From assembly GCA_043799565.1 (NCBI GenBank), contig JAZDNP010000015.1:12557-76556 (forward strand): DNA of 64,000 nt, read 5' to 3'. Source of the DNA: Candidatus Brennerbacteria bacterium (GTDB lineage Bacteria; Patescibacteriota; Minisyncoccia; UBA6257; GWB1-50-10). A model generated the notes under the pieces. That model did no database searches. It had not been told where the DNA came from and saw only the letters and a list, made by a program, of their open reading frames with translations. Position numbers and translations under genes: made by a program. Below are positions 8,818 through 60,188 of the stretch, in pieces; the stretch's first letter is position 1; the number at the start of each line of letters is the position of its first letter.

Positions 8818-8846
8818 TTGACGGCTTAAAAGGGGTGTGGTATCAT
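8818..8846 (+). promoter_or_regulatory. Sigma70-like promoter TTGACG-17-TATCAT overlapping the first ATG of the next gene; the predicted transcription start is near the second ATG (8854), i.e. a leaderless mRNA
   Basis: -35 at 8818-8823, 17-nt spacer, -10 at 8841-8846. There is no Shine-Dalgarno sequence at a usable distance. Confidence 0.4.
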
Positions 8847-11960: not shown

Positions 11961-13403
11961 ATGTCACGCGCAGGAAAGGTACAAATAATCAAATACGCTC
12001 CGCCGCCGCCCGACCTCCCGATGCTCGGGAAGGTGAAGCCGGAGGACTGCTCGTTCATCGGACGCACGAACTACGTGACCGGCATTGAGGAGAAAAAATT
12101 TGTGTTCGGACTGAAGCGTGTGGATCGCCGGCGGCACCTCTACATCGTGGGGAAGAGCGGTGTGGGGAAATCAAAACTTTTGGAGCTTCTCATCCGGCAG
12201 GATGTTGCGTTCGGTCATGGGCTCTGCCTCATGGACCCACACGGCGATGTCATTGAGGCCATTCTGGAGTTCATTCCAGAGGAGCGCCTGGAGGATGTGT
12301 GTATCATTGACCCTTCGGATTCAAAATACCCCATCTCATTCAACCCGCTCGCGAACGTGGATCCCGAGTTTAAGCATCAACTCACCCAAGGGTTGATTGA
12401 AGTCATGGAAAAGCAGTTCGGCGCGAACTGGACGCCGCGCTTGGAACACGTATTCCGTTTCACATGTTTGGCGCTTCTCGACTATCCCCATGCCACCATG
12501 CGGGGGATGATATCCATGCTCACCGACCGCAATTATCGGCAGAAGGTGGTGGAATACATTGAGGACGACATGGTAAAGCGCTTTTGGGCCATTGAATTCG
12601 CTGACTGGTCGGAAAAGTTCGATACGGACGCCATCATTCCTTTAGTAAACAAGCTGGGGCAGTTCCTCTCGAACCCACTCCTCCGGAACGTCTTCGGGCA
12701 GAAGGAGAACAAGGTGGATCTCGAGAAGCTCATGCAGGCGAAGAAGATTATCCTCATCAACCTTTCCAAAGGGAAGCTCGGCGAGGAAAACTCCAGCTTC
12801 TTCGGTTCCATGTTTATCACAAAGATTAAACAGGCGGGCATGGCGCGCGCGGCGATGTCGGAATCCAAGCGGCACGATTTCTACCTCTACGTGGACGAGT
12901 TCCACAATGTGGTCACGGAGACCTTCGAAAACCTCCTTTCCGAAGCGCGCAAGTACGGGCTCTGTCTCACGGTGGCGCACCAATATATGAAGCAGCTTTC
13001 GCAAGAGGTGCAGGGGGCGGTTTTGGGGAACACGGGGTCCATGGTCGTTTTTCGTGTGGGTGGCGAGGATGCGGCGGCCTTGGAATCCGAAATGACCCCA
13101 ATCTTCAAAGCGAAGGATATGATCAATCTCGGGATGCAGGAATTCTACGTGAAGATGACAATAGATGGAGAAACCTACGACCCTTTCTCGGCGGAGACTC
13201 TGAAGGTGCTCCCGTCGCCGCACGGTTCGTTCAAAGAGCGTATCATAGAAGCGTCGCGGCAGAAATACTCCATTTCGGCGGATGCCGCAAAAAAGCTCAT
13301 TGTGGAGGAAGAAGCGGGCATCTTCCGGAGCGCGCAGGAAAAGGCAGCTATTACCGGCGAAAAAGGAGGGGTCGCAACCGACAACCCTGAGCCTTTGATA
13401 TAG
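11961..13403 (+). CDS. FtsK/HerA/TraD-superfamily P-loop ATPase (VirD4/TraD-type coupling-protein-like, soluble domain only)
   Basis: Walker A YIVGKSGVGKSK, Walker B DFYLYVDEFHNV, and overall resemblance to the type IV secretion DNA-binding (TrwB/TraD) ATPase domain. It has no TM segment of its own. Confidence 0.65.
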   Translation: MSRAGKVQIIKYAPPPPDLPMLGKVKPEDCSFIGRTNYVTGIEEKKFVFGLKRVDRRRHLYIVGKSGVGKSKLLELLIRQDVAFGHGLCLMDPHGDVIEAILEFIPEERLEDVCIIDPSDSKYPISFNPLANVDPEFKHQLTQGLIEVMEKQFGANWTPRLEHVFRFTCLALLDYPHATMRGMISMLTDRNYRQKVVEYIEDDMVKRFWAIEFADWSEKFDTDAIIPLVNKLGQFLSNPLLRNVFGQKENKVDLEKLMQAKKIILINLSKGKLGEENSSFFGSMFITKIKQAGMARAAMSESKRHDFYLYVDEFHNVVTETFENLLSEARKYGLCLTVAHQYMKQLSQEVQGAVLGNTGSMVVFRVGGEDAAALESEMTPIFKAKDMINLGMQEFYVKMTIDGETYDPFSAETLKVLPSPHGSFKERIIEASRQKYSISADAAKKLIVEEEAGIFRSAQEKAAITGEKGGVATDNPEPLI

Positions 13404-14056: not shown

Positions 14057-14143
14057 CATATCGCAACGGTAAAATGTTGCATTTCTGCTATCGCGGAAAT
14101 GTAACATTTTTAGCGCGGTTGTTTTAGAAAATTACGTTATAAT
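14057..14143 (+). promoter_or_regulatory. Candidate regulatory region of the paralog array: two direct copies of TATCGC-N-AAATGTnnCATTT separated by 25 bp, plus a perfect TATAAT ending 6 nt before the ATG
   Basis: Each copy contains the palindrome AAATG-N3-CATTT, at 14072-14084 and 14097-14109. Their centres are about -72 and -47 relative to a transcription start predicted at the ATG A (14150). There is no -35 hexamer and no SD. Confidence 0.35.
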
Positions 14144-14149: not shown

Positions 14150-15814
14150 ATGACTCCCGAAACCAGAGCGTGCCGGAATTGCCAGAACGCCTTCACTATT
14201 GAACCGGACGATTTCACGTTCTATGAGAAAATGGGTGTCCTACCTCCTGTAAGCTGTCCCGATTGCCGCTTCAAAATAAGAGCGCAGTTCAGGAATGAAA
14301 CGACGCTCTATTCGAGGAAGTGCAACTTGTGTGGACGCTCGATCATTTCGATGTATAATCCCCAGTCGCCTTACACGGTCTACTGCGAGGCGTGTTACGT
14401 GTCCGACAAGTGGGACCCTTTTTCCTACGGAATTAATTATGATTTCAACCGGCCGTTTTTCGAGCAGTTCGGAGAGTTGCTAAAGAAAGTTCCAAAAATG
14501 ACCACGTTTTCAGACCGTTCCAGGCCTAGTACCAACAGCGAATATATAAATTATTCCGGCGGTAATAAGGATTGCTACCTCATATTTAATGGTGGGTCGG
14601 CGGAGAATTCTATGTATTGCCGGGGTCTAAGGTTTTGCAAGGATGTCGTGGACATGTATTTCACACAGAAAACGGAGAGGTGTTATGAGGGAATAAATAT
14701 TATGCAGTCCACTGGGGTCCAGTTCGGTAAAAATATTTCAGGCAGCATAGACTCAATGTTTGTATCGGATGGAAGCGATCTCCAGAATTGCCTTGGCTGC
14801 GTGAATCTTCGGCACAAAAGCAATTACTTTTTCAACAAGCCCGTTTCGAAGGAGGAATTGGAAAAGAAGTTGGGGGAAATAAAGGGTAGTTATTCGAAAA
14901 CAACGAATTTTCAGAAGAAATTTGATGATTTTTCGCTTCAATTTCCAAAGAAAGAAAACAACAATATTAAAGCGGTAGATTGCGTCGGGGATTACATCTT
15001 TAGTTCAAAAAATGCCCGTACCTGTTTTGAGGTAACCGACTGCGAGAATTGCAAGTTTGGTTATTTTATCAAGGGTTCGAAGGATTCCTACGATCTAACC
15101 GGTTTTGGCTATGGCGCCGAGCTACTTCTCGAATGCGTTGGGGTCGGCGTTTCGCAGCGGGTCATCGGCACCTATTGGGCCGAGGAGTCCCATGACATCG
15201 ATTATTGTTATTGTGTCATGTCAAGTGAAAATTGTTTTGGTTGTGATGGTTTAAAGCATGCCCAATTTTCGGTCCTGAACAAGAAGTATTCGAAAGAGGA
15301 ATTCGAAAAGGTACGGCAACACATAATCGAGGAAATGAAAGAAAAAGGTACCTACGGACATTTCATTCCGGTTCAACTGGCGCCGTTCGCTTACAACGAG
15401 ACCATTGCGCAAGACAATCTTCCCCTAACAAAGGAGGAGGCGATTCGACAGGGTTTCCGCTGGGAGGAAAATCCCCAGATGACGAAAGGAAAAGAGACAT
15501 TGAAGCCTGGCGACATCCCAGATCATATTCGAGACATTCCCGATTCTATAACCGAGGAAATCCTCGCCTGCATCTCGTGCGGTCGGAACTATAAGATCAC
15601 TGCCCAAGAATTGGGATTGTATAGACGCGAGACCACCCCCATTCCTCGAAAGTGTTTCTATTGTCGCCACAAGGAAAGGATCGAGAAAAGAGGACCCTTC
15701 GCGCTCTATGCGAGAAAATGTGTGCATTGCGGCAAGGCAATCCAAACCACCTACGGCTCAGAAAGGCCAGAAATTGTTTATTGCGAGCAATGTTACCAAG
15801 CGGAGGTCATATGA
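14150..15814 (+). CDS. Cys-rich multi-zinc-ribbon protein, copy 1 of 10 of a lineage-specific tandem paralog family (function unknown)
   Basis: 554 aa. N-terminal CRNC...CPDC and CNLC...CEAC zinc ribbons, central CLGCVNLRHK and CFGCDGLKHA modules, C-terminal CISC...CFYC...CVHC...YCEQCYQAEVI. Its stop overlaps the next ATG as ATGA. Confidence 0.8.
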   Translation: MTPETRACRNCQNAFTIEPDDFTFYEKMGVLPPVSCPDCRFKIRAQFRNETTLYSRKCNLCGRSIISMYNPQSPYTVYCEACYVSDKWDPFSYGINYDFNRPFFEQFGELLKKVPKMTTFSDRSRPSTNSEYINYSGGNKDCYLIFNGGSAENSMYCRGLRFCKDVVDMYFTQKTERCYEGINIMQSTGVQFGKNISGSIDSMFVSDGSDLQNCLGCVNLRHKSNYFFNKPVSKEELEKKLGEIKGSYSKTTNFQKKFDDFSLQFPKKENNNIKAVDCVGDYIFSSKNARTCFEVTDCENCKFGYFIKGSKDSYDLTGFGYGAELLLECVGVGVSQRVIGTYWAEESHDIDYCYCVMSSENCFGCDGLKHAQFSVLNKKYSKEEFEKVRQHIIEEMKEKGTYGHFIPVQLAPFAYNETIAQDNLPLTKEEAIRQGFRWEENPQMTKGKETLKPGDIPDHIRDIPDSITEEILACISCGRNYKITAQELGLYRRETTPIPRKCFYCRHKERIEKRGPFALYARKCVHCGKAIQTTYGSERPEIVYCEQCYQAEVI

Positions 15815-17538
15815 ACGCGGAAACGAGAAATTGCGCGAATTGCAAGAACTCTTTCACGATAGAGCCGGACGATTTTGTGTTCTATGAACGGATAAGCGTG
15901 CCGCCACCCACGTGGTGCCCAGGGTGTCGGCAGCAACGCCGCTATTCGTGGCGTAATGAACGTGTGCTGTATCGTAGGAACTGTGACTTGTGTGGAAAAA
16001 GCACGGTAACAATCTACTCGCCGAGCAAGCCCTACAAGGTATTTTGCCCGCCATGTTGGTGGTCCGATAAATGGGACGCCCTTGAGTATGGGAGGGAATT
16101 TGATTTTTCTCGCCCGTTTTTCGAGCAGTTTCAAGAGGCGCAGCTCCAAGTGCCCCGCATCGCGCTTCTTACGAAGAATAGTGTCAATTCCGAATACACC
16201 AACCACTCCGGCGATAACAAGAACTGTTACCTGAGCTTCAGCACTTTTGGAGGTGAGAACATTATGTATGGTACGAACGTGTGGGCGCCGTCCAAGGATT
16301 CCATGGACCTTTATCTTGTTCGGACAGAAGGAGGTGCGGAGCGTTGCTATGAATGCATCGATTCGTCCAAAATCTACAGTTTGCAGTTCACCAAGCTGGT
16401 CAAAGACTCAAATGACTGTGCATATTGCTTCGATTGTCGCGGGTGCTCCCACTGTTTCCTCTCCTCAAATCTAAGAAACAAGCAGTACTATTTTGAGAAT
16501 CATCCGCTCTCAAAGGAAGAGTACCAAAAGAAAATGGAGGCAATGAATCTTGGTTCGCGAAAAATTCGCGAAAAACTGTATGAAAAATGGCTTGACCTTA
16601 TCAAGAAACGCTCACTTCACAAATTCGCGATCGTAGAAAAATCCACCGGCGTGACAGGGAATATGGTTTTCAATTCCAAGAATTCAGCCGCGATTTTCGA
16701 TGGCGATAAGACGGAAGATTCCAAATATTCCATTATCTGTCCCGATGTGAAGAATAGTATGGATGTATACCACGTTGGTTTTAGCTGCGAGCTAAATTAC
16801 GAAGCTCATGCCTTGGTTCGTGTCTACGACGTGTTCTTTTCCCACTTGAGTTATGACAACTCCCATTTGCAATATTGCGATTCGTGTCACAACAGCGAAA
16901 ACCTTTTCGGATGCGTGGGTTTGCGATCAAAAAAATATTGCATTTTCAACAAACAATATTCGGAAGAAGAATATAAAACGCTTCGCGCGAAAATCATTGA
17001 GCATATGAAGAAGGGCGGGGAGTACGGCGAATTCTTCCCACCCAAACTTTCTCCTTTCGGATATAACGAAACCCAAGGGATTATTTATATGCCCCTCACC
17101 AAAGAAGAAGCGGTGAAGCGTGGATATAAATGGGAAGATGTGGTAACCGGCACATTCAATAAAGAAACCATTTCTCAAAACGAAGTTCCGGACGATATTA
17201 AGGATGTTGAGAATTCAATTCTTAAGGAGGTTCTGAAGTGTGATGAATGTGAAAAAAACTACAACATTGTGGAGCCGGAGCTGGAATTCTATCGCCGAGA
17301 AGGCATTCCTATCCCGCGTTTTTGCCCGAATTGCCGCTATCAGAAACGGCTTAGCCTCCGCCCCCCACGCAGACTTTGGCACCGGCAATGCATGTGCGAC
17401 TATCGAGCGTGGGAGAATAGCGTAAAACACCCGCATCACACCGAAGGGAGATGTTCTAACGAGTTCAAAACTTCCTATGCCCCCGAAAGGCCCGAAGTGG
17501 TGTATTGCGAGCAGTGCTATAACGCAGAAGTCGTATGA
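15811..17538 (+). CDS. Cys-rich multi-zinc-ribbon protein, copy 2 of 10
   Basis: Begins MNAETRNCANCKNSF at the ATGA overlap; the ORF-track extension back to 15652 lies inside copy 1. It ends ...VYCEQCYNAEVV. Confidence 0.8.
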   Translation: MNAETRNCANCKNSFTIEPDDFVFYERISVPPPTWCPGCRQQRRYSWRNERVLYRRNCDLCGKSTVTIYSPSKPYKVFCPPCWWSDKWDALEYGREFDFSRPFFEQFQEAQLQVPRIALLTKNSVNSEYTNHSGDNKNCYLSFSTFGGENIMYGTNVWAPSKDSMDLYLVRTEGGAERCYECIDSSKIYSLQFTKLVKDSNDCAYCFDCRGCSHCFLSSNLRNKQYYFENHPLSKEEYQKKMEAMNLGSRKIREKLYEKWLDLIKKRSLHKFAIVEKSTGVTGNMVFNSKNSAAIFDGDKTEDSKYSIICPDVKNSMDVYHVGFSCELNYEAHALVRVYDVFFSHLSYDNSHLQYCDSCHNSENLFGCVGLRSKKYCIFNKQYSEEEYKTLRAKIIEHMKKGGEYGEFFPPKLSPFGYNETQGIIYMPLTKEEAVKRGYKWEDVVTGTFNKETISQNEVPDDIKDVENSILKEVLKCDECEKNYNIVEPELEFYRREGIPIPRFCPNCRYQKRLSLRPPRRLWHRQCMCDYRAWENSVKHPHHTEGRCSNEFKTSYAPERPEVVYCEQCYNAEVV

Positions 17539-19241
17539 AACAAGAGACGCGAGATTGTCAGAACTGTAAGCAACCGTTCGTCATCGAAGCGGAGGATTTC
17601 TCGTTCTACGAAAAAATGACGGTGCCGGCGCCCACATGGTGCCCCAAGTGCCGGCTCCAGCGGCGCCTCGCATTTTTCAATCTCTTCAATTTGTGGAAGC
17701 GGAAGTGCGACCTTTGCGGAAATGAGATGATTGCCATGTATCCACCGGAGGCATCTTACAAAGTGTACTGTCCCCATTGCTGGTGGGGAGACGGATGGGA
17801 CCCCTACAACTACGGTCGCGAGTACGATTTCTCGCGGCCATTCTTCGCGCAGTTCAGTGAGCTCTGGCACGAAGTTCCCCTCCTTGGGCTCTCGCTCAGC
17901 TTGAATTCCATTGATACGTCGCCCTACAACAACCACGCGGGAGGATTGAAAAATTGTTACCTCCTTTTCCACGCAGATTTTTGCGAGGATTCGGCATACG
18001 GAGCGTACCTCAACCGGTGCAAGTCCGTTTTTGATTCTTCGCTTACCATTTCTTCCGAGCACTGCTACGATATGCTCCATTCTTACCGGAACAACCGATG
18101 TGTCGGTGGGCGGAGCCAAGTCACCGAATCTATTGACTGCGCGTTCTTGAAGGACTCGATGAATTGCCAGCACTGCTTTGCGTCCGCGAACATGCGGAAC
18201 AAGAAATACTACATATTCAATCAGCCATATTCTAAAGAAGGGTACGAGGAGGAAATGAAGAAGTGGGACCTTGGGAGCTATCGCACATACCAGGAAGCGA
18301 AGCGGCGCGCCGAAGAGCATTTGGTAACATTGCCTCCGAAGCCGACAATGGATGAGTTCACAACGAACTGCACGGGGAGCCATGTGTTCCAAGCAAAAAA
18401 CTGCAAGGATTGTTTCGAAGTGGTGGGTGCCGAGGACTGTCGCTACGTCCATATGGTGCAGGACCCCCCAGTCAAGGACTGCTACGACGTTACAAGCTGG
18501 GGCAACAACACGCAGCGTTGCTATGAAGGCTGTGTGGTGGGGGAGTTCGTAAGCGACCTGAAATTTTGCCAGGAAAGCGGCATTAATCTCTACTTTGCGG
18601 AGTACTGCAAGCTTTCGACGGGAGGCTCGCGTCACTTCGGGTGTGTGTCGGTGAAGAAAGGCGAATACGCCATTTTGAACAAGCATTACTCCAAAGAAGA
18701 ATACAGGGCACTCACCGAGAAGATACGGAAGCATATGGATGAGATGCCGTATGTGGATAAAAGAGGAGGAGTCTATAAATACGGTGAATTTTTCCCGGTG
18801 GAGTTGTCACCGTTCGCATACAACAAAACGATTGCAGATATATTCTTCCCGCTCTCAAAACGGGAGGCAGAGGAGCGGGGATATGTATATATGGAGCCGG
18901 AGGTGCGGACCTACACCGTAACGAAACAAGCGAAGAACCTTCCGGATCATATCAAAGATGCGCCGAACGATATCGTAAAAGAGACCATCGCGTGCGAGAA
19001 ATGCGGGAAAGGATACAAGGTGACCGAGATGGAGCTTGCGTTCCTGCGGAACATGAACCTGCCGCTCCCGCGCCGGTGCCCCTTCTGCCGCATCCAGGAA
19101 AAATTCGCGCAGTGGGTGAAGAATCTCCGCGTCATTGACCGGACGTGCGGCAAATGCGGCGTTACATTCCAAACGAATTATCCCAAGGAGGAGGCGCCGC
19201 ACATTCTCTGCAAACGGTGTTATCTTAAAGAAATCGTATGA
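17535..19241 (+). CDS. Cys-rich multi-zinc-ribbon protein, copy 3 of 10
   Basis: 568 aa, MKQETRDCQNCKQPF...; ATGA overlaps at both ends; C-terminal zinc-ribbon variant CEKCGKGYKV...CPFCRIQEK...CGKCG. Confidence 0.8.
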   Translation: MKQETRDCQNCKQPFVIEAEDFSFYEKMTVPAPTWCPKCRLQRRLAFFNLFNLWKRKCDLCGNEMIAMYPPEASYKVYCPHCWWGDGWDPYNYGREYDFSRPFFAQFSELWHEVPLLGLSLSLNSIDTSPYNNHAGGLKNCYLLFHADFCEDSAYGAYLNRCKSVFDSSLTISSEHCYDMLHSYRNNRCVGGRSQVTESIDCAFLKDSMNCQHCFASANMRNKKYYIFNQPYSKEGYEEEMKKWDLGSYRTYQEAKRRAEEHLVTLPPKPTMDEFTTNCTGSHVFQAKNCKDCFEVVGAEDCRYVHMVQDPPVKDCYDVTSWGNNTQRCYEGCVVGEFVSDLKFCQESGINLYFAEYCKLSTGGSRHFGCVSVKKGEYAILNKHYSKEEYRALTEKIRKHMDEMPYVDKRGGVYKYGEFFPVELSPFAYNKTIADIFFPLSKREAEERGYVYMEPEVRTYTVTKQAKNLPDHIKDAPNDIVKETIACEKCGKGYKVTEMELAFLRNMNLPLPRRCPFCRIQEKFAQWVKNLRVIDRTCGKCGVTFQTNYPKEEAPHILCKRCYLKEIV

Positions 19242-20893
19242 CGAGCGAAACTAAAATCTGCCAGAATTGTCATGGTTCCTTCACCATCGAACCGGACGAT
19301 TTTGGATTTTATCAAAGGTTGGACCTCCCCGCGCCTTTCCGTTGCCCGAAATGTGAGTGGCAATATCTCCTCGCGTTTTGGATTTTCGGTCGCTTCCGCA
19401 TCTCCGTATCAGCGTTGAGCGGAAAGCGTATTATTACCGCGCTTCCGGAAAGCGTACCCTTCCCAATTTACGAGCGCGATGAATTCGTTTCTGATGCGTG
19501 GGATCCGTTGTCGTATGGACGCGACCACGACCCTCGTCGACCTTTTCTCACACGGCTTCTTGAACTTCAAGCAAGTGTTCCTCATCCGCACCAAACCGGT
19601 ATCAAGAACGTGAATTGTGACTGGACCGATGACGTGTGGGAATCTCGGGACGCCTATCTTACACGTTCCGGACTGGGCATGGAATCCGTGAGCTACTGCT
19701 ATCGGGCATTCTACTGCAAGAATTCCATTGATCTTACTTATTGTTTCAATACCGAGCACTCTTACGACTGCCTTCATTGCTTCAATGGTTATGGCCTAAA
19801 GTACTCATTTAATTGCCGTGCCTGCATTAATAGCGCGTTTCTGTACGACTGTCGCAATTGCACGGATTGTTTCATGTGCTGGAATTTGCGGAACAAACAG
19901 TATCACATTCTCAATCAGCCATACTCGAAAGAAGATTACCTCGTCAAAATCAAGGAATTTGATGTTCGTTCGTATGCGGTTGTAGAGCAGTTGAGGAAAG
20001 AATTTTGGGAGCATATCCGCAACGATGCGACTCATCGTGCGGACTATAACTTTCTCAATTCCCGCTCAACCGGAAATTTTTTGACAGAGGACAAAAACTG
20101 TCACAAGTGCTACTTCCTCGATAAATCGGAAAATTGCCGTTATTGTTTCCGCGGGCTGGGGAGCAAGGACAATATCTATATTATGGGTTCTGTAGGAGAA
20201 AAATGTGGGCGTGGTTCCCTCGATCAATGGGGTTACGAGAATGTGTGCAATCTTTACACTTCATATTGTCGCTACAGCGCCTATTTGGATAATTGCGAGG
20301 AATGCGAACATTGTTTCGGCTGTGTCGGTCTTCGGAAGAGAAGTTATTGCGTTTTGAACAAGCAATATTCGAAAGAGCAATACGAGGAACTTGTTTTGCA
20401 TATTAAGTCGCAAATGAAGGCAACGAACGAATGGGGATTGTTTTTCCCGCTTGCCGGAGCTTACAGTGGGTACAATTATTCACTTGCCCATCTCATGTTC
20501 CCCAAGTTTCGCGAGGAGGCACTTGCCTTTGGCGCAAAGTGGGACGAACTACCGCACGACGGACATGTCGGAGTGCGAAGCGAAGATTTGCCAGACAGAA
20601 TCGACGGAGTTCAGGACGAACTTACCAAGCAGCGGATTATCTGCGCCGCAACGAAGCTGAGCTACAATATTGCGCCCCACGAGCTGCAATTCTATCGAGA
20701 ACACGGAGTTCCGCTGCCGCGCGAGCATTTCGACTGGCGGACCTTTAAACGCTTCAAACCGCTGGCGCTTATGGTAGATCTTCAAAGAGAGGAGTGTGTT
20801 TATTGTGGTAAGGAGATTGAACATTATTATTCTCCGGAGCTCGGCTTTCGGAAGGTCGCTTGCGTGGAATGCTACCAACAAAATTTCTCATGA
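19238..20893 (+). CDS. Cys-rich multi-zinc-ribbon protein, copy 4 of 10 (divergent copy)
   Basis: 551 aa. The first zinc ribbon is retained (CQNC...CPKCEW), the second ribbon has lost its cysteines, and the C-terminal module is replaced, ending CVYCGKEIEHYY...CVECYQQNFS. The ORF is intact. Confidence 0.75.
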   Translation: MTSETKICQNCHGSFTIEPDDFGFYQRLDLPAPFRCPKCEWQYLLAFWIFGRFRISVSALSGKRIITALPESVPFPIYERDEFVSDAWDPLSYGRDHDPRRPFLTRLLELQASVPHPHQTGIKNVNCDWTDDVWESRDAYLTRSGLGMESVSYCYRAFYCKNSIDLTYCFNTEHSYDCLHCFNGYGLKYSFNCRACINSAFLYDCRNCTDCFMCWNLRNKQYHILNQPYSKEDYLVKIKEFDVRSYAVVEQLRKEFWEHIRNDATHRADYNFLNSRSTGNFLTEDKNCHKCYFLDKSENCRYCFRGLGSKDNIYIMGSVGEKCGRGSLDQWGYENVCNLYTSYCRYSAYLDNCEECEHCFGCVGLRKRSYCVLNKQYSKEQYEELVLHIKSQMKATNEWGLFFPLAGAYSGYNYSLAHLMFPKFREEALAFGAKWDELPHDGHVGVRSEDLPDRIDGVQDELTKQRIICAATKLSYNIAPHELQFYREHGVPLPREHFDWRTFKRFKPLALMVDLQREECVYCGKEIEHYYSPELGFRKVACVECYQQNFS

Positions 20894-22629
20894 CAGAAAC
20901 AAGGCAGTGCCAGAATTGTCGAAACCCATTTGTCATCGAGCCGGATGATTTTGCGTTCTACGAGCGCATCAAGGTGCCGCCGCCGACGTGGTGTCCGGAG
21001 TGCCGAATGATACGGCGGATGGCGTTTCGGAGCGAGCGCCCCCTTTTTAAAGATTTCTGCGACCTTTGCAGGAAAGAGATAATTTCCATGTACGGACCGG
21101 AAAAGCCGTATAAAGTGTACTGCAACGCATGCTGGTTTTCGGACAAATGGGACGGGACAGAATATGGACGCGAGTATGATTTTTCGCGCCCGTTTTTCGC
21201 GCAATTCGCCGGTCTCCTGGCGGAAGTGCCAAGGATGGCGCTGGAGGCCTACCAGAACGAAAATTCCCCCTATTCAAATTTCACATGGATGTCCAAAAAT
21301 ATTTATCTTTCGCCCTCCTCGATGTTTTCCGAGAATATTCTGTTCACTTTCGGAGCTTGGTACAGCACGGATCTTGTGGATTGTTTCCGCACCCAAAACT
21401 CTTCGCTTGGCTATTATCTGGTTGAGTCCAACAAGTGTTCGTCGTCGCGCTATTTAACAGATTCGCTCGAGTGTCTTGATTCCGCATTCCTCTTTGATTG
21501 CAGGAATTGTAGGAATTGCTTTATGAGTAGCGGACTTCGAAATAAAACGTTTTATTTCCGCAATACCCAGCTTACGAGAGAGGAATATGAGAAGAAATTT
21601 GCGGAAATCGACATGGGAAGTTTTACGTCCACGCAGAAGCTTATCGCTGAATTCAACGAGCTTATGCTCCACACGATGCGGAAGTATGCCATATTGAGCA
21701 AAGTTGAAAATGTAACAGGCGATATGATTTTCAATTCAAAGAACGTGCACCGGGGTTTTAATGGTAAAGATAGCGAAAATTTGAAGTTTGTGGCGCACTT
21801 TGTGGAAGCAAAGGACTCCATGGACGCGCATGGCGTGGGACCGTCTGGGGAACTCATCTACGAAGTGGTCAATGGTGGTTATAAAGACCAGTCGGTCTTT
21901 TTCGTCACCCATACCTATGAAGGGATGAATTTGGTGTGGTATTGCGATTACTGCCGATTGTCGGGGAAAAATCTTTTCGGGTGCGCAGGTCTAAAACACA
22001 AGCAATACTGCATCCTGAACAAGCAATACACAAAGGAGGAATACGAGGAGCTGGTGCCCAAGATCATCAAGCACATGAACGACATGCCGTATGTGGATGA
22101 GAAGGGGAGAGTATATCGGTATGGAGAGTTTTTCCCGCCAGAGTTGAGCCCCTCGGCATACAACGAAACCATCGCCCAAGAGTACTTCCCCCTCACAAAA
22201 GAACAGGCTCTCTCGCGAGGGTATCGCTGGAGAGACCCCGACACCAAGGAGTACAAGGTGACCAAGCCCCCCCAGGGCCTCCCCGATCACATCAAGGATG
22301 TGGACGACTCAATCCTTCAAGAGACCATTGGTTGCGCCCATGAAGGTTTCTGCACCCACCAGTGCACCACCGCCTTCAAGGTCATCCCCGAAGAGCTCGC
22401 CTTCTACCGCAGAATGAACCTCCCCCTCCCCAGGCTCTGTCCCAACTGCAGACACTATGAACGTCTCTCGGAGCGGAACCCTATGAAGCTTTGGCACCGC
22501 CAATGCATGTGTGATAAGCCAAACCATCCCCACCACGGTCGTTGCCCCAACGAATTTGAGACGAGTTATGCGCCCGAAAGGCCGGAGACGATATATTGTG
22601 AACAGTGTTATAACGCCGAAGTCGCATGA
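20890..22629 (+). CDS. Cys-rich multi-zinc-ribbon protein, copy 5 of 10
   Basis: Begins MTETRQCQNCRNPF at the ATGA overlap. Its C-terminus ...LWHRQCMCDKPNHPHHGRCPNEFETSYAPERPETIYCEQCYNAEVA matches the copy 2 subtype. Confidence 0.8.
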   Translation: MTETRQCQNCRNPFVIEPDDFAFYERIKVPPPTWCPECRMIRRMAFRSERPLFKDFCDLCRKEIISMYGPEKPYKVYCNACWFSDKWDGTEYGREYDFSRPFFAQFAGLLAEVPRMALEAYQNENSPYSNFTWMSKNIYLSPSSMFSENILFTFGAWYSTDLVDCFRTQNSSLGYYLVESNKCSSSRYLTDSLECLDSAFLFDCRNCRNCFMSSGLRNKTFYFRNTQLTREEYEKKFAEIDMGSFTSTQKLIAEFNELMLHTMRKYAILSKVENVTGDMIFNSKNVHRGFNGKDSENLKFVAHFVEAKDSMDAHGVGPSGELIYEVVNGGYKDQSVFFVTHTYEGMNLVWYCDYCRLSGKNLFGCAGLKHKQYCILNKQYTKEEYEELVPKIIKHMNDMPYVDEKGRVYRYGEFFPPELSPSAYNETIAQEYFPLTKEQALSRGYRWRDPDTKEYKVTKPPQGLPDHIKDVDDSILQETIGCAHEGFCTHQCTTAFKVIPEELAFYRRMNLPLPRLCPNCRHYERLSERNPMKLWHRQCMCDKPNHPHHGRCPNEFETSYAPERPETIYCEQCYNAEVA

Positions 22630-24392
22630 ACTCTGAAACCAAAACCTGCCAAAATTGCCACAGCCCGTTCATCATTGAACCGGATGATTTCGCGTTCTAC
22701 GAGCGCATCAAAGTGCCGCCACCGACATTTTGCGCGGAATGCCGCGAAAAGCGGCGTATCGCATCCAGGAACGAACGCTCGCTCTACAGAAGGAAGTGCG
22801 ATATGTGCGGGAAGGAAGTGGTATCGCGAATTTCGCCCGACAAAACTTATCCGATGTATTGCAATAATTGTTGGTGGTCGGATAAGTGGGATGTGCTTTC
22901 CTACGGAAGGGATTTTGACGCCACAAAACCATTTTTCGCGCAGTATAAGGAGTTGCTCTATTTGGTTCCTCACGTTGCGATGTACAACAGCGCAGTGGTG
23001 AACAGCGATTGGGTGAACCAGGAAACCAACGACAAAAACTGCTATCTCAATGTCGGTGGTCACTACAACGAGAATTCCGCATACAACACCTATGAGGTTT
23101 ACGGAAAGGATTCTTTGGACTGTCACTGGCTTCTCAATAGCGAGTTCTGCTACGCCGCCATCAATTGTCACCGGTGTTATAAAGCTTTTTATTCCCAAGA
23201 TTGTTTTGACTGCCAGGACACATATTTTTCATACGATTGCAGGAATTGCACGAACATTCTTGGGTGCGCGGGACTTCGCAACAAGCAGAACTATATATTT
23301 AACAAACCGGTTTCCAAGGAGGAATTCGCGAAATTTTTAGAGGAGAACCCTCTCTCGTCCGCAAAGAACGTTGCCCGATTGGCGGCAGAAGCTCGGAAGA
23401 TAGGGAGTGGCATACCGCGGCGATTCAGCGCGGTTTTCAAGTCGGTGAATTGCAGTGGAAATAATCTCGTGGAGTCTAAGAACGCACACTACGTTTTTGA
23501 TGGGGGAACCATTGAGAATTCCAAATACCTTTTTATCACCGGATGGGTGAAAGACAGCTACGATATGACCTCGAGCGGCGGTTCGGAGTTGAGCTATGAA
23601 TGTTCGAGTGGGGGCGGAGGGTATAACGTGAAGTTTACCGCATATAGCATGTCGCCGAACCCGCTCGAAAAGATGCATTCCCGCGATTTGGAATACTGCT
23701 ACGCCACGGGAGATTGCGATAGTTGTTTTGGGTGCGTGGGTCTCCGGAGTAAAAAATATTGCATTTTGAACAAGCAATATTCCGAAGCGGACTATCAAAA
23801 GAAAGTTGCGGAAATACGGCAGCAGATGATGGCGGTGCCCTATGCGGACGGGATGGGAAGAGAATATCGCTATGGCGAGTTTTTCCCGTCAGAGCTCTCG
23901 CTTTTCGGGTATAACGAAAGCGCGGCGATGGACTACTATCCACTCACGCGCGACGAGGCCCTTGCGCAAGGTTATGTATGGAGCGATTACGAATCGGAAA
24001 CGAGCGTGGCATTCTCGGGCTATGAAATCCCCGACGACATCAAAGACGTGAAGGACGATGTGCTGGAAAAGGTTTTGGAGTGCGAGGTTTCGGGGAAACC
24101 GTACAAGATAATTCCGATGGAGCTCGCATTCTACCGACGCATGGGTTTGCCGCTTCCGCGCCGTGCACCGCTCCAGCGGCACAAGGACCGCACCGCAAAA
24201 CTTTTGCCGCGCAAGCTTTTTGACCGTGCGTGCGAGTGTGGAGGAAAAGCGTCCAACAAGGGCGGTTTTGCAAATACCACTCCGCATTTTCACGGTGACG
24301 GACACTGCCCGAACATAGTACAGACACCCTATGCGCCGGATCGACCGGAAATTGTATATTGCGAGCAATGCTATCAAACTGAAATTATATGA
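22626..24392 (+). CDS. Cys-rich multi-zinc-ribbon protein, copy 6 of 10
   Basis: 588 aa, MNSETKTCQNCHSPF...; two central CxxCxxC-F/L-GCxGLRxK modules; C-terminal CEVSGKPYKI subtype. Confidence 0.8.
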   Translation: MNSETKTCQNCHSPFIIEPDDFAFYERIKVPPPTFCAECREKRRIASRNERSLYRRKCDMCGKEVVSRISPDKTYPMYCNNCWWSDKWDVLSYGRDFDATKPFFAQYKELLYLVPHVAMYNSAVVNSDWVNQETNDKNCYLNVGGHYNENSAYNTYEVYGKDSLDCHWLLNSEFCYAAINCHRCYKAFYSQDCFDCQDTYFSYDCRNCTNILGCAGLRNKQNYIFNKPVSKEEFAKFLEENPLSSAKNVARLAAEARKIGSGIPRRFSAVFKSVNCSGNNLVESKNAHYVFDGGTIENSKYLFITGWVKDSYDMTSSGGSELSYECSSGGGGYNVKFTAYSMSPNPLEKMHSRDLEYCYATGDCDSCFGCVGLRSKKYCILNKQYSEADYQKKVAEIRQQMMAVPYADGMGREYRYGEFFPSELSLFGYNESAAMDYYPLTRDEALAQGYVWSDYESETSVAFSGYEIPDDIKDVKDDVLEKVLECEVSGKPYKIIPMELAFYRRMGLPLPRRAPLQRHKDRTAKLLPRKLFDRACECGGKASNKGGFANTTPHFHGDGHCPNIVQTPYAPDRPEIVYCEQCYQTEII

Positions 24393-26155
24393 CCCCCGAA
24401 ACGCGGCAGTGTCAGAACTGCAAGCAGAATTTCGTCATTGAACCGGACGATTTTGCGTTCTACGAGAAAATGAAGGTTCCTGCGCCGACTTTCTGCCCGG
24501 ATTGCCGCCGACAAAGACGTTTCGCGTGGCGTAATGAACGTACGCTCTATAAACGCGCGTGCGACATGTGCCGCAAAGATGTGATCGCGCTTTACCCGAA
24601 GGACTCGAAATTTCCGGTCTACTGCAACGCGTGTTGGTTTTCGGACAAATGGGATCCGCTCACATACGGAGCCGCATACGACCCCTCAAAGCCGTTTTTC
24701 CGGCAATTCAAGGAATTAAGTGAAAAAGTTCCGCGGCTTGCCATTTGGGTACAACAGTCCACAGATTCGGAATACACCAACCAATCATATTCGAATAAAA
24801 ACGTATATCTTTCCTTCGCGCTTCGAGATTCGGAAGATGTGGCGTATTGTTGCCGCGCGGTGGAGCTCAAGCAGTGCATTGACGATACCTACACTCATCA
24901 TTCGGAGCTTCTATATCAATGTGTTGATACCGACAAATCGTACCGGAGCCAGTTTCTCGAAGAAGCCGATGGATGCGTGGAAAGCGCATTTCTTTCCAAC
25001 GCGCGAAACTGCCAGAACTGTTTCGGGGGAGCGAATCTTCGGTCCGCGTCCAACGTATTTTTTGGCGAGGCGCTCAGCAAAGAGGCGTACGAAGAAAAAT
25101 TGGCGGGCATAGACAAAGGAAGCAGGAAAGTGCTTGAAGAGCTGAAAAAGAAGCTTGCCGAGCTGAAAAAGCGGAGCATTTTCCGTTTTGCCACACTCAC
25201 GAATGCCACCAACGTGACCGGAAACCATCTTTCCAATGCGAAAAATTGCCATTTTGTTTTTGACGGGTTCGAGCTTGAAAATGCCCGCTATTCCTCATGG
25301 GTCTTTACGAGCAAGGAAATATCCGACTGCTACGGCATGGGCGGGAGCGAGTTCATCTACGAGGGGATTGGCGTGGAAGAGGTGAATAACATCAAATTCG
25401 CGACGGTGACCGACAGTTCACACCATGTGGAATATACCGACATGTGCTCCGCTTCATCCAATCTTTTCGGGTGTGTGGGCCTGAGAAACAAAGAGTATTA
25501 CATTCTGAATAAACCATACGCCAAAGAAGAATACGAGAAGAAAGTGGCGGAAATTATCGCCCACATGAATGCGTCACCCTACACAGACAAGAGGGGGAGG
25601 GTATACAGGTACGGGGAATTTTTCCCCGCGGAGCTTTCTCCCTTCGCATACAACGAAACGGTGGCGCAGGAAAACTATCCGTTGAAAAAAGAAGATGCGG
25701 AAGCGCAGGGGTACTTCTGGAGAGAGCCCGAGGCGCACCAATATGCAACAACGCTTACTGCGGAAAACGTGCCGGACAACATAAAGGAAGTTTCGGATTC
25801 AATAACCAACGAGACGATCCAGTGCGCTCATGAAGGCAAGTGTAATGACCAGTGTTCCACCGCGTTCCGCATCACCCCGCTTGAATTACGGCTCCATCGA
25901 GCGCTGAACATGCCATTGCCCCAACTTTGCCCCAACTGCCGGCATTATGAGCGGCTTGCCCAGCGGAATCCCTTGAAGCTTTGGCGCCGGAAATGCCAAT
26001 GTGCGGGCGGAAAGTCCGAGGATGGCGTTTATACGAATACCGCCGTGCATTCGCACAAAGATGGGCGTTGCATAAATGAATTTGAAACAAGCTACGCCCC
26101 CGAAAGGCCGGAGACGATATATTGCGAACAGTGTTATAACGCCGAAGTGATATGA
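24389..26155 (+). CDS. Cys-rich multi-zinc-ribbon protein, copy 7 of 10
   Basis: 588 aa, MTPETRQCQNCKQNF...; C-terminal GCAHEGKCNDQC...LPQLCPNCRHYERLAQRNPLKLWRRKCQCAGG subtype. Confidence 0.8.
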   Translation: MTPETRQCQNCKQNFVIEPDDFAFYEKMKVPAPTFCPDCRRQRRFAWRNERTLYKRACDMCRKDVIALYPKDSKFPVYCNACWFSDKWDPLTYGAAYDPSKPFFRQFKELSEKVPRLAIWVQQSTDSEYTNQSYSNKNVYLSFALRDSEDVAYCCRAVELKQCIDDTYTHHSELLYQCVDTDKSYRSQFLEEADGCVESAFLSNARNCQNCFGGANLRSASNVFFGEALSKEAYEEKLAGIDKGSRKVLEELKKKLAELKKRSIFRFATLTNATNVTGNHLSNAKNCHFVFDGFELENARYSSWVFTSKEISDCYGMGGSEFIYEGIGVEEVNNIKFATVTDSSHHVEYTDMCSASSNLFGCVGLRNKEYYILNKPYAKEEYEKKVAEIIAHMNASPYTDKRGRVYRYGEFFPAELSPFAYNETVAQENYPLKKEDAEAQGYFWREPEAHQYATTLTAENVPDNIKEVSDSITNETIQCAHEGKCNDQCSTAFRITPLELRLHRALNMPLPQLCPNCRHYERLAQRNPLKLWRRKCQCAGGKSEDGVYTNTAVHSHKDGRCINEFETSYAPERPETIYCEQCYNAEVI

Positions 26156-27948
26156 CGAACGAGACAAAGACTTGCCAAAATTGTAAACAGAACTTCGTCA
26201 TTGAACCGGACGACTTTGCGTTCTACGAGAAAATGAAGGTTCCTGCGCCGACGTTCTGTCCCGATTGCCGTCGGCAGAGACGGATGGCCTTTCGGAACGA
26301 GCGAATATTCTACAAACGATCTTGCAATGTGCCTGGGCACACCGAGGAAATAGTATCCACATTTTCTCCAGACAAGTCCGTTACGGTTTATGACGACCGA
26401 TATTGGTGGAGCGATGCATGGAACCCTACGGACTATGGGCGACCGTATGATTTTTCGCGCCCGTTCTTCGAACAGTACAAAGAACTTTTGCGCCGAGTAC
26501 CGCTCATCAATCTTTCCATCACTAATATGGTAAATTGCAGTTATTGCAACGTGTCAGAAGGCGACAAAGATTCATTTTTCATCTCCGGCTCCGAGAGGAA
26601 TGAGAACGTGTCGTACGCGAACCGGGTAGTGTTCAGTAAGGATTCACAGGATCTCTATATCGCGAACGCGTGCGAATTGAGCTACGAGCTTGTAAGTTGC
26701 AACAAGTGTTACCGCGTCTTTTTCAGTAGAAACTGCAGTGATTGCTCGGAGTCGGCATTTTTATGGAACTGCACCAACTGTAGCCACTGTTTTGGATGCA
26801 CAAATCTTCGAAACAAGTCATATCACTTTTTCAATACGCCGCTCTCCAAGGAAGAATTCGAGAAAAAAATGCGCGAGGTGGGTCTTGGAAATTTTGCGGT
26901 GGTTGAGCAATATAGAAAGAAGCTTCGTGGACTCGCCGAGAAATCGCTCCACCGATTCGCGAACATCTTAAAAAGTGTGGAAGTAACCGGTGATAATATC
27001 GCCTTCTCTAAAAACATAAAACAGAGTTTTGACATGGTCGGGAATCCCGCTGCGGAAGACGGCAAGTATCTCACTTGGGGCGGTATGGGAGTGAAAGACG
27101 TATGGGATGCCGGGCCAGGGGTAGGTGTTTCGCTTGAGCGGGCATATGAGGTAACTGATGTCGGCATCCAATCAAACAGTTGTTTCTTTGCGAGTGTGGT
27201 ATACGGTTCCTATGACGTGTACTACAGCATCAACTGTCACGGGTCGCGCCACCTCTTCGGGTGTTACGGTCTTCGCAGCAAGGAGTACTGTATTTTGAAC
27301 AAAGAATATTCAAAAGAAGAGTACGAAGCCCTCGTGCCGAAGATCATTTCTCATATGAACGAGGTTCCCTACGCGGACAAGAAAGAGAGGATGTATCGGT
27401 ACGGCGAGTTTTTCCCGATGGAAATTTCTCCTTACGCCTATAACGAGGTTATTGCACAGGAATACTACCCACTCACAAAAGAACAAGCGCTCGCGAAGGG
27501 GTACGAGTGGAAAGACCAAGACGCGAAGGGGCACCAGATTACCATAGGGTCCGCGGACCTTCCGGACGATATTAAGGATGTTTCGGACAATATCCTGAAA
27601 GAGACGATAGGGTGTGCAGATGGAGGAATATGTAATCATCAGTGCGCGCTTGCGTTCAAAATAATGCCGCAGGAACTCACGTTCTATCAGAAAATGGGAT
27701 TGTCGCTTCCCCGTCACTGCTATAACTGCCGCCACTATGAGCGTTTGGCGCAGAGAAATCCCCTGAAACTGTGGCACCGGAAGTGCCAGTGCGCAGGGGG
27801 AAAAGCAGAGAACGGCACTTACGCAAATACCGTTTCCCATACGCACCACGGCACCGGCCACTGCACAAACGAATTTGAAACGACCTATGCTCCCGACCGC
27901 CCGGAAGTCGTGTATTGCGAGCAATGTTATCAGGCCGAAGTGGTATGA
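26152..27948 (+). CDS. Cys-rich multi-zinc-ribbon protein, copy 8 of 10 (CN-x-PGH subtype)
   Basis: 598 aa. The second zinc ribbon is replaced by CNVPGHTEE...YDDRYWWSDAWNP. The C-terminus has GCADGGICNHQC...CYNCRHYERLAQRNPLKLWHRKCQCAGG. Confidence 0.8.
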   Translation: MTNETKTCQNCKQNFVIEPDDFAFYEKMKVPAPTFCPDCRRQRRMAFRNERIFYKRSCNVPGHTEEIVSTFSPDKSVTVYDDRYWWSDAWNPTDYGRPYDFSRPFFEQYKELLRRVPLINLSITNMVNCSYCNVSEGDKDSFFISGSERNENVSYANRVVFSKDSQDLYIANACELSYELVSCNKCYRVFFSRNCSDCSESAFLWNCTNCSHCFGCTNLRNKSYHFFNTPLSKEEFEKKMREVGLGNFAVVEQYRKKLRGLAEKSLHRFANILKSVEVTGDNIAFSKNIKQSFDMVGNPAAEDGKYLTWGGMGVKDVWDAGPGVGVSLERAYEVTDVGIQSNSCFFASVVYGSYDVYYSINCHGSRHLFGCYGLRSKEYCILNKEYSKEEYEALVPKIISHMNEVPYADKKERMYRYGEFFPMEISPYAYNEVIAQEYYPLTKEQALAKGYEWKDQDAKGHQITIGSADLPDDIKDVSDNILKETIGCADGGICNHQCALAFKIMPQELTFYQKMGLSLPRHCYNCRHYERLAQRNPLKLWHRKCQCAGGKAENGTYANTVSHTHHGTGHCTNEFETTYAPDRPEVVYCEQCYQAEVV

Positions 27949-29681
27949 CCTCCAAAACCCCCACATTTAATGTGGCACTAAATGCGATTTTTGATACGCT
28001 CGTCCCGCACGAACGAACGTGTGCGTGGTGCGGAGAGAAATTCCAGGTGGAGAAGGAGGACATTGATTTCTACCGGATGCTCCGTGTACCTCCACCAACG
28101 TGGTGCCCGGAGTGCCGTGAAAAGAGGCGATTCGGACACTTGATGAGGATGATGAAGTTTTTCAAACGACCGTGTAGCGCGCCAGGTCACAGTGAAAACG
28201 TTATTTCCGTCATTCCACCCGCGGCGCCACATAAAACTTTTGATTTTTCGTATTGGCATTCGGACGCGTGGGATGCGGCAACGTTTGGATGCGCATATGA
28301 CGTTGCGAAACCATTCGGGGAGCAATTCCGTGCTCTATTCCTTGATGTGCCACATGTTCCATTGGAACGAGATCCTGCGGCGGTAAATTCGGACTACGCG
28401 GTGGGTGGAACTGCATCAAAAAACGTTTACTTTTCGGGGATGGCGCTTGATTGCGAGAACATTTTTTATTCCTACGATAGCCGTTACAGCCACGACCTCG
28501 TGGATTGCAATGAAGTAAGCAATTCCGGGAACTGCTATGGCGCGATTTGTTCCGCGTACAGCGAGCGATGCCGTTTTATTATCGGGTGTTCCCATTGTCT
28601 AGACTGCGATTTCCTCTATGAATGCAAGCATTGTTCGCATTGTTTTATGTCGGCGAACTTGAGAAACAAGTCCTACATGTTCCGCAATGAGCAACTCTCA
28701 AAAGAGGAATACGAGGAGCGAATGCGCGAAATTAGGACAGGCGAGCGGATCCAAATAGAGGCACTTCATAAAGAGTTTGAGGACGTTATGGCGCGTTCGT
28801 TGAGGCGCGCGGTTCAGACGGTGCACACCACAGATTCCGTGGGGGACAGTTTGAGCGAATGCAACCGATGTTTCTTTGCCTTCAGATCGGAAAAAGTCGA
28901 AAACGCGCGGTATGTAGCGAACGTTTTTTCCGCGCATGACCTTATGGACACATTGAACAACATACAAACAGAGCAGTCGTACGAAAACATTGTTATCGGA
29001 TGGGGGAGCAAGAATTATTTTTCAATGTACCTCCGCCACTCGTCATCCATGGAGTATTGTTCCGAGTGCCTCCGTTGTGCCGATTGTTTCGGATGCGTTG
29101 GGCTCAAAGATAAGAAATTTCACATTTTTAACGTGCCGCATCCTGAAGATGAATATTGGCGGCGCGTGGATGAGCTGAAGACCGCAATGCTTGCGCGCGG
29201 CGAATATGGAGAATTTTTCCCGCTCACGCTCGGTCTTTTTCCGTACCAAACGTCAAATGCGCAGAAAGAATTTCCTATCACTGAAAAGGAGGCGCAACAG
29301 CGGGAAATCCCCTGGTACGCCGAATCCTCGTCCGATATTTCCACAAACCTACGGGTCCGCAAAGCGCCCGCCGAGGTCCCCAAAGACATTAAGGATGTTA
29401 CCGATGGGATTCTCAATGATGCCATTGCATGCGAGGTAAGCGGCAAGCCATTTCGCATCACAAAAGACGAGCTCGCGTTCTACCGTAAAATGGAACTTCC
29501 GCTCCCCACAAAACATCCTTGGGAACGAATGCGGGAGCGGGGACGATGGGAACATGGATTTTGGCTCTCGCCTTTCATGTGTCCAAAATGCAAGGAACAG
29601 TCCTGGTCGGTGTATAACAAGGAAGAGCAGCGGCGCTTCGAGATCTATTGCGAATCGTGTTATCTCAAGGAGGTGATATAA
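27945..29681 (+). CDS. Cys-rich multi-zinc-ribbon protein, copy 9 of 10 (CS-x-PGH subtype, divergent N-terminus)
   Basis: Begins MTSKTPTFNV at the ATGA overlap. CAWCGEKF...CPECREKRR zinc ribbon, then CSAPGHSEN. C-terminal CEVSGKPFRI subtype with a degenerate terminal ribbon. Confidence 0.75.
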   Translation: MTSKTPTFNVALNAIFDTLVPHERTCAWCGEKFQVEKEDIDFYRMLRVPPPTWCPECREKRRFGHLMRMMKFFKRPCSAPGHSENVISVIPPAAPHKTFDFSYWHSDAWDAATFGCAYDVAKPFGEQFRALFLDVPHVPLERDPAAVNSDYAVGGTASKNVYFSGMALDCENIFYSYDSRYSHDLVDCNEVSNSGNCYGAICSAYSERCRFIIGCSHCLDCDFLYECKHCSHCFMSANLRNKSYMFRNEQLSKEEYEERMREIRTGERIQIEALHKEFEDVMARSLRRAVQTVHTTDSVGDSLSECNRCFFAFRSEKVENARYVANVFSAHDLMDTLNNIQTEQSYENIVIGWGSKNYFSMYLRHSSSMEYCSECLRCADCFGCVGLKDKKFHIFNVPHPEDEYWRRVDELKTAMLARGEYGEFFPLTLGLFPYQTSNAQKEFPITEKEAQQREIPWYAESSSDISTNLRVRKAPAEVPKDIKDVTDGILNDAIACEVSGKPFRITKDELAFYRKMELPLPTKHPWERMRERGRWEHGFWLSPFMCPKCKEQSWSVYNKEEQRRFEIYCESCYLKEVI

Positions 29682-60166: not shown

Positions 60167-60188
60167 CGACATCTCTTATGTGGCGGCG

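Follow-up and report, generated by a model that had tools for sequence, protein, structure and literature searches.

The question raised by this locus is why a run of strongly diverged genes should be joined, at every boundary, by the same four nucleotides. Nine paralogous genes occupy positions 14150-29681 of the + strand of a 64-kb stretch of DNA (hereafter the window) from a metagenome-assembled genome of Candidatus Brennerbacteria; they comprise 551-598 codons each, are free of internal stops when their open reading frames (ORFs) are translated, and at all eight internal junctions (8/8) the TGA stop of one copy overlaps the ATG start of the next as ATGA. All coordinates are window positions, the related loci compared with the window carry L-numbers, and the features are collected in Table 1. 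A first-pass annotation had listed these overlaps, and their positions are borne out by our analysis and by the gene boundaries of the NCBI Prokaryotic Genome Annotation Pipeline (PGAP); the "nine junctions" of which it also spoke are eight. It went on to propose that the C-terminal A-E-V codons of each copy double as a Shine-Dalgarno (SD) element for the next, that strict coupling yields the subunits of a multisubunit assembly in equal amounts and that selection acts on the junction nucleotides themselves. Our data lead to another answer: we consider it fairly probable that the array is one operon of ~15.5 kb, made of nine anciently diverged paralogues, in which a leaderless first gene is followed by SD-independent re-initiation at inherited junctions.

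The reality of the chain does not depend on our gene calls. The PGAP proteins V1885_03385 to V1885_03420 are identical to our translations of copies 2-9, so that these boundaries are independent of the start choice made here; the exact sequence of copy 1 was absent from the protein collection searched, and its annotated start may differ. An assembly artefact is ruled out because the copies share only 29-54% amino-acid identity. Reading of TGA as a sense codon (code 25) is ruled out as well, since SecD, an aminoacyl-tRNA synthetase and an M50 peptidase keep their full length when read with code 11, and TGA also terminates other genes in the window. A programmed -1 frameshift that would fuse the copies was rejected because no slippery heptamer precedes any of the eight junctions.

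Outside the array, the usual junction in the window is a TAA stop followed by 1-16 nt, and ATGA occurs at only ~1 of 34 other same-strand junctions, as against the unbroken series within the array (Fisher p = 8e-8); the single other probable case lies between the genes ending at 45925 and 47793. Likewise, TGA is the stop codon of 8 of the 9 array genes and of 4 of the 40 other genes in the window. Across 60 related loci, with the window excluded, 33 of 164 adjacent family pairs (20%) are joined by ATGA. When the window is included and adjacent family genes up to 300 nt apart are counted, the 172 junctions divide into 41 with ATGA (-4), 53 with distances of -1 to +10 nt and 78 with spacers of 11-300 nt. 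The ATGA junctions cluster in particular arrays (permutation p = 5e-5, window excluded), for example with five in L011 and five in L044. GC content does not account for this clustering and was ruled out as the driver of TGA and ATGA usage, the loci with ATGA spanning 37% to 53% GC. The uniform ATGA pattern is specific to this array and is neither family- nor genome-wide.

We then asked whether the junctions carry SD elements. With the canonical anti-SD sequence assumed, the eight internal starts have a median duplex energy of -2.2 kcal/mol, compared with -4.7 kcal/mol for random 21-mers of the window, and seven of the eight bind the anti-SD no better than, or worse than, random sequence. A complement to the anti-SD 4-12 nt upstream of the start and above background was found at junction 1 alone, where a credible SD (GGAGGT, -10.7 kcal/mol) stands 4 nt before the ATG of copy 2. 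No SD enrichment was detected at the non-array genes of the window under the same anti-SD assumption, and SD-core motifs stay near their background level of 13%, being present before 12% of leading family genes and before 15% of ATGA starts. This scarcity is in line with the detection of an anti-SD motif in only 48% of Parcubacteria 16S rRNAs (PMC9297842). Codon choice in the C-terminal tails points the same way. At ATGA junctions across the family, the glutamate codon three before the stop is GAG in 6 of 37 cases, whereas the codon usage of the individual genes predicts 15.5 (z = -3.25); in copies without a nearby downstream copy GAG is not depleted (40 observed, 34.7 expected). Thus, at the very sites where the SD hypothesis requires it, the synonymous substitution that yields GAGGT is avoided.

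The proposal that the C-terminal codons double as SD elements therefore fails on both counts, weak duplexes everywhere except junction 1 and depletion of GAG at ATGA junctions. Its descriptive basis stands in part: A-E-V precedes the next start in five of the eight upstream copies, the other three ending in KEIV, QNFS and TEII, and SD-like strings are present as GGAGGT once and as GAAGT four times, with nothing SD-like at the remaining three junctions. One strong SD is indeed made by C-terminal codons, namely AAGGAGGTGAT at the end of copy 9, and it stands ahead of a gene from outside the family. It precedes a GlxA/kelch-like gene, with 6 nt to an in-frame GTG at 29684 and 12 nt to the ATG at 29690, which is the PGAP start; GTG 29684 may be the true start of this gene.

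If the tail is not a ribosome-binding site, its conservation requires another basis, and the protein itself appears to provide it. Solo copies and those at the end of an array, which have no copy downstream, conserve the xEVx tail as well as the others do, and six residues separate the final CxxC knuckle from the C-terminus. In addition, the tail aligns with the CW-x-S-D segment, including its acidic position, that in the homologous N-terminal zinc finger follows the CxxC[WY] knuckle, which argues that it is part of a folded finger. Hence we assign the xEVx residues to the last zinc finger, which is treble-clef-like, and take them to be kept for the protein; constraint at the protein level is sufficient to explain their conservation, and the earlier idea that A-E-V is constrained at the nucleotide level loses its footing. 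ATGA itself dictates, by definition, only that the last sense codon ends in A and that the stop is TGA. Recent gene conversion that homogenized the junctions was ruled out, as synonymous sites vary freely in the last codons. The synonymous codons that are shared near the gene ends are A/T-ending ones such as TAT and GAA. No significant RNA structure was detected at the eight junctions (z from -1.07 to +1.12), and these scores also rule out a hairpin that hides the starts. As a separate observation, five of the eight minimum-free-energy folds (junctions 2, 4, 5, 6 and 7; e.g., 24389-24438) pair the AUGA(C) at the start with (G)UCAU in the conserved F-x-I codons ~45 nt downstream; this pairing is probably incidental, the folds being no more stable than those of shuffled sequences.

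How, then, might the array be expressed? Leaderless mRNAs produced from a -10 box ~6-7 nt before the start codon are familiar from Actinobacteria, Deinococcus and haloarchaea. A hexamer of this kind, TATAAT, ends 6 nt before the ATG of copy 1 (Table 1), and its distance from the ATG, together with the usual distance from a -10 box to the transcription start, would place that start 6-7 nt past the box, at or next to the A of the ATG; copy 1 would accordingly be translated from a leaderless or near-leaderless mRNA. The placement recurs in the family: in the 152 leading family genes that have 60 nt or more free upstream (L001-L085), a match to TATAAT at 5 or more of 6 positions starts at -12 in 23 genes and at -13 in 6, compared with ~1-2 at positions elsewhere. 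This sharp positional peak agrees with the placement of the box in the known leaderless systems, from which the present case differs in being deduced from sequence, and it suggests that leaderless mRNAs are common for this zinc-finger family in Paceibacteria. A generic two-hexamer promoter scan did not call the TATAAT of copy 1, and our literature search found no paper on leaderless mRNAs in Parcubacteria. Within the array, promoter-like sites (16, compared with 18.5 in shuffled sequences) and terminator-like sites (19, compared with 22.5) showed no excess in consensus scans, which are weak tests.

At the starts of copies 2-9 there is neither a spacer nor a usable SD nor any stable local RNA structure, and internal promoter-like sites are not in excess, so that coupling is the simplest route by which these copies could be translated. 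We propose that a ribosome ending at the UGA re-initiates on the overlapping AUG, so that expression of copies 2-9 would be chained along the array. The -4 ATGA overlap is the most common overlap in prokaryotes and has been shown to couple translation tightly, with strict termination-reinitiation in E. coli and Haloferax volcanii (PMC6728339, PMC10666635). Strict coupling was found in 13 of 14 overlapping pairs tested, with a variable and sometimes dispensable contribution of the SD (PMC6728339), and coupling collapses by a spacer of ~20 nt (PMC10666635). The junctions of the array match the pairs of Huber et al. 2019/2023 (PMC6728339, PMC10666635) in being co-directional stop/start overlaps of exactly 4 nt, ATGA at each of the eight, without a spacer; unlike those pairs, they are eight in series between paralogues, most lack the usual intragenic SD and their coupling is proposed here from sequence. 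An SD-free overlap pattern has been described in Bacteroidetes, and a conserved heteromer is not what the array genes seem to encode. Although the ATGA junction is textbook material, an established coupling device with a known mechanism, a series of eight consecutive overlaps is unusually long, occurs in an organism that gives no sign of SD use and follows an apparently leaderless first gene. To our knowledge, translation initiation in Patescibacteria has not been studied. The chain of overlaps is real and specific to this array; it makes a good candidate for translational coupling without an SD and a clean natural system in which to test such re-initiation in Patescibacteria.

The comparative picture bears on both the age of the array and the alleged assembly. 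Each copy in the window shares 50-67% identity with a protein elsewhere, compared with 34-54% with its nearest copy in the window; being closer to a protein of another genome than to their own neighbours, the paralogues predate these lineages. Tandem arrays are common in the family and reach 12 copies in 21 kb, but neither the order of subfamilies nor array size (1-12) is conserved. The nearest relatives of copy 7 illustrate this variation: they stand in an array with 2-28 nt spacers in L080, in an array with 63-257 nt spacers in L084, in a pair 35 nt apart in L087 and solo among housekeeping genes in L082, L086 and L088. Junction types differ between genomes whose proteins are 65-75% identical, and no syntenic orthologous array was found among the related loci compared. 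The first-pass annotation regarded orthologous arrays with spacers, with SDs of their own and without ATGA overlaps as a sign that the coupling is incidental; L080, L084 and L087 do have spacers and no ATGA, but their spacers carry no independent SD. A set of subunits shared across genomes, usually in conserved order, marks heteromeric operons; no such set was found. Because the sets of paralogues, their order and their linkage all vary, a fixed heteromeric complex is not supported, and the suggestion of a co-stoichiometric multisubunit assembly finds no backing, since orthologues of single copies stand alone or in arrays of other order, size and spacing. Two side observations concern the junctions of other arrays. 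In L031, L033 and L036, from three different genomes, family genes are separated by a nearly identical 24-nt spacer, AGTATTTGGTATATAGTATTTAGT, which contains a TATATA element and may act as an internal promoter. In the L044 array, two pairs of junctions have identical flanks, which suggests either that a unit of about two genes was recently duplicated within that array or that the repeat stems from the assembly.

How the uniformity arose we infer from this distribution. Growth of an array by unequal crossing-over inside gene bodies would copy the existing junctions, so that one junction type is inherited throughout; arrays would thus tend towards one type, matching the observed clustering. Moreover, ATGA should be hard to lose, because the start or stop codon pins each of its bases and only insertions or deletions can change the junction. 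The uniform junctions are therefore probably inherited and hard to mutate away. Several points weigh against this account. The duplex energies rest on the canonical anti-SD sequence, the 3' end of the 16S rRNA gene being absent from the window and from every related locus retrieved, and the good SD at junction 1, together with GGAGG at a few other genes in the window, indicates that the ribosome may still use SD elements. The single transcript, its start site and re-initiation are all read from the sequence. In the nearest relatives, the orthologues of copy 7 follow spacers of 2-63 nt or stand solo, so that junction types do change between genomes; this weakens the notion that ATGA is hard to lose, and ATGA may be ancestral or may have been gained repeatedly in this lineage. 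Finally, the ratio of observed to expected synonymous identity among the nine copies is 1.16-1.21 in the last 12 codons and 1.16 in the first 45 alignment columns, compared with 1.04 in the gene body, which is weak evidence because the gene pairs are not independent. Some constraint at the nucleotide level may thus act near the junctions, and the raised identity fits a preference for A/U-rich start regions better than it fits SD elements.

These observations also allow the alternatives to be weighed. That the A-E-V codons are a dual-coding SD, with strict coupling, nine heteromer subunits in a fixed ratio and selection on the junction nucleotides, draws on the GGAGGT before copy 2, on GAAGUGAU at junction 7 (-5.9 kcal/mol) and GAAGUGGU at junction 8 (-5.3 kcal/mol), on the general enrichment of short overlaps among genes for heteromeric complexes (PMC10666635) and on the mild excess of synonymous identity in the last 12 codons. 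It has to contend with anti-SD binding at or below random at seven of eight junctions, with the avoidance of GAG, with the persistence of the xEVx tail where no copy follows and with copy number, order and junction type that vary between genomes, single paralogues even standing solo; we regard this explanation as largely refuted and very improbable. A different possibility is that the overlaps reflect genome compaction only and that each cistron is initiated de novo, without an SD, on an A/U-rich unstructured start, as in Bacteroidetes. The background level of SD use throughout the window and the family would fit, as would the favouring of A/T-ending codons (GAA, TAT) just upstream of the starts and the absence of structure that occludes them, and the ~45% of family junctions with SD-less spacers of 11-300 nt must initiate independently. 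The rest of the genome, however, compacts as TAA plus 1-16 nt and rarely uses TGA, so that compaction alone does not predict ATGA at every junction, and the strict coupling of nearly all tested -4 overlaps (PMC6728339) also tells against it; we therefore judge it unlikely.

Lineage-specific selection for coupling is a live rival of a different kind. Here, the Brennerbacteria lineage would have actively selected ATGA at all junctions because neighbouring paralogues act together, as hetero-oligomers or as a graded set. Orthologues with other junction types and neighbours elsewhere are compatible with gains in this lineage, ATGA runs occur in other arrays (L011 and L044), and the use of an otherwise rare TGA stop suggests a tolerated cost. 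No conserved pairing of subfamilies was seen across genomes, though, no evidence speaks for an interaction, and the same clustering is expected from the copying of junctions during array growth, for which reasons we hold active selection to be decidedly unlikely and favour inheritance of the junctions.

In our view, the locus is of interest less for its junctions than for the uncharacterized proteins that it encodes and for the genes around them. A search with copy 7 brings up over 5,000 relatives (E < 1e-5), each annotated as hypothetical, and the named matches all come from Paceibacteria/Parcubacteria (Jorgensen-, Nomura-, Lipton-, Staskawiczbacteria and others) except one labelled Woesearchaeota; an exhaustive profile search yields 2,332 clusters at 50% identity (E <=1e-30). 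The proteins are ~570 aa long and rich in zinc fingers, with no signal peptide or transmembrane segment seen, and are probably cytoplasmic. CxxC...CxxC modules like those of zf_Tbcl and zf_Tbcl_2 (PF13451, PF23477) stand at both ends of each copy. Two CxxC knuckles ~17-25 residues apart are present, with C8, C11, C36 and C39 invariant, as are C579 and C582; the window copies score 16.4-18.6 bits against these models, below the gathering cut-offs of 24 and 27, and PF23477 is precomputed on some homologues (P0052, P0070). Unlike those small domains, the copies have ~400 further residues, two homologous Cys-rich halves and a middle domain, that match nothing. The N-terminal zinc-finger pair is homologous to the C-terminal pair (hhalign 99.4%, E = 5e-22), and the two central Cys-rich halves are homologous to each other (profile-profile 99.9%, E = 4e-32). 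A confident AlphaFold2 model of copy 7 (predicted local distance difference test score 84, predicted template modelling score 0.85) gave no PDB match in Foldseek, and its matches in BFVD were of zinc-finger size only; searches of family proteins against NCBIfam, PADLOC and PDB sequences returned nothing useful, and a literature search found no paper on them. The family is thus one of four zinc fingers with an internal duplication, specific to Paceibacteria and without a Pfam family or a PDB fold match. Individual zinc sites seem to have been abandoned in some subfamilies: in copy 4, most zinc-ligand cysteines of fingers 2 and 3 are gone and the xEVx tail is absent, and yet this copy has orthologues at 62-67% identity in L025, L008 and L062, and the first CxxC of finger 2 is replaced in copies 8 and 9. 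The array exposes a very large uncharacterized family without a fold match, and at least ten copies, ~17 kb of the 64 kb, represent a heavy investment for a reduced genome.

Table 1. Positions of the array copies and of other features mentioned in the text
Feature	Position	Strand	Remarks
TATAAT, -10-like hexamer	14138-14143	+	ends 6 nt before copy 1 ATG (-12 to -7)
Copy 1	14150-15814	+	554 aa; ends CYQAEVI, TGA; N-terminus aligns with family
Copy 2	15811-17538	+	575 aa; ATGA 15811-15814; GGAGGT 15802-15807; V1885_03385
Copy 3	17535-19241	+	568 aa; ATGA 17535-17538; V1885_03390
Copy 4	19238-20893	+	551 aa; ATGA 19238-19241; ends QQNFS; V1885_03395
Copy 5	20890-22629	+	579 aa; ATGA 20890-20893; V1885_03400
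Copy 6	22626-24392	+	588 aa; ATGA 22626-22629; V1885_03405
Copy 7	24389-26155	+	588 aa; ATGA 24389-24392; V1885_03410; copy used for modelling
Copy 8	26152-27948	+	598 aa; ATGA 26152-26155; V1885_03415
Copy 9	27945-29681	+	578 aa; ATGA 27945-27948; ends CYLKEVI, TAA; V1885_03420
AAGGAGGTGAT	29667-29677	+	perfect SD from copy 9 K-E-V-I codons; -18.5 kcal/mol
Tenth family member, solo	40633-42420	+	ends CYQAEVV, TGA; no family copy downstream
Only other probable ATGA overlap in window	45922-45925		between genes ending 45925 and 47793
Sigma-70 region-4-like protein	8845-9873		precedes type A ATPase
Protein with N-terminal hydrophobic segment	10019-11416		precedes type A ATPase
Protein with N-terminal hydrophobic segment	11423-11959		precedes type A ATPase
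Type A VirD4/TrwB/HerA-like P-loop ATPase	11961-13403	+	upstream of array; identified by Pfam
ATPase examples, L054	4609-6183; 16113-18416		positions in L054
ATPase example, L080	19326-21476		positions in L080

The array is preceded by a P-loop ATPase of the VirD4/TrwB/HerA type, here called type A, which scores above threshold for PF10412 TrwB_AAD_bind (39.4 bits vs 20.5) and PF02534 (26.0 vs 20.1) and shows no hydrophobic N-terminus in its translation. Twenty other loci have a type A orthologue (~500 aa), in most cases directly upstream of family genes, and 18 loci have, in most cases directly downstream, a type B paralogue (~700 aa), which carries an inserted zf_Tbcl_2-like zinc finger with a weak match to the second finger of the family. 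All ATPase genes found, in 30 loci including the window, lie on the same strand as the family genes, and ten loci have both types, mostly with type A upstream and type B downstream (e.g., L054, L059 and L075). This recurrent flanking provides a first functional handle on both sets of genes. A 2025 survey counted 5,713 VirD4 homologues in 2,918 Patescibacteria genomes, only 148 of them near virB4, and its authors raised the possible exaptation of VirD4 homologues for another function (PMC12102498); the flanking ATPases may be such "orphan" homologues. The arrays resemble the VirB2 pilin arrays of Patescibacteria in their tandem, strongly diverged paralogues of variable copy number, and those arrays, of 2-11 genes with a mean identity of 25%, have been read as a diversified repertoire instead of a fixed complex; they differ in that the genes here are of a zinc-finger class and belong to Paceibacteria, the pilin arrays being found mainly in Microgenomatia and Saccharimonadia (PMC12102498). 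We speculate, as a rather unlikely possibility, that the type A and type B ATPases, which bracket the arrays, form the core of an undescribed Paceibacteria system to which the arrays contribute a repertoire of cargo or adaptor proteins; a leaderless start followed by a series of SD-free AUGA re-initiations would then let one loaded 70S ribosome read nine cistrons in succession, with a fixed, graded output of the diversified paralogues.

The genes that precede the type A ATPase recur with it as well. The sigma-70-like gene and both genes with N-terminal hydrophobic segments accompany the ATPase in L003, L009, L014, L025 and L048; L055 lacks the third gene of this set, and L038 has the third only. 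The solo tenth copy lies between an M50 peptidase and a class II aminoacyl-tRNA synthetase (42396-43706), and the order of a family gene followed by a class II aminoacyl-tRNA synthetase is also found in L087. At 42417, a TTGA places TTG over the stop of the tenth copy as a possible start overlap; this TTG is probably not the start of the synthetase.

Two further features of the window and the family deserve mention. The 370-nt intergenic region at 60166-60537 contains GC-rich stretches that look self-complementary; neither an Rfam match at gathering thresholds nor a tRNA or tmRNA was detected in it, and the Rfam and tRNA scans of the whole window returned no matches. Inside copy 3, a 405-aa antisense ORF on the - strand (17517-18734) was rejected as a shadow ORF, because its counterparts in copy 3 orthologues span only 74-267 aa and are not conserved. 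Long antisense ORFs in the zinc-finger family are nearly always in the codon-antisense frame.

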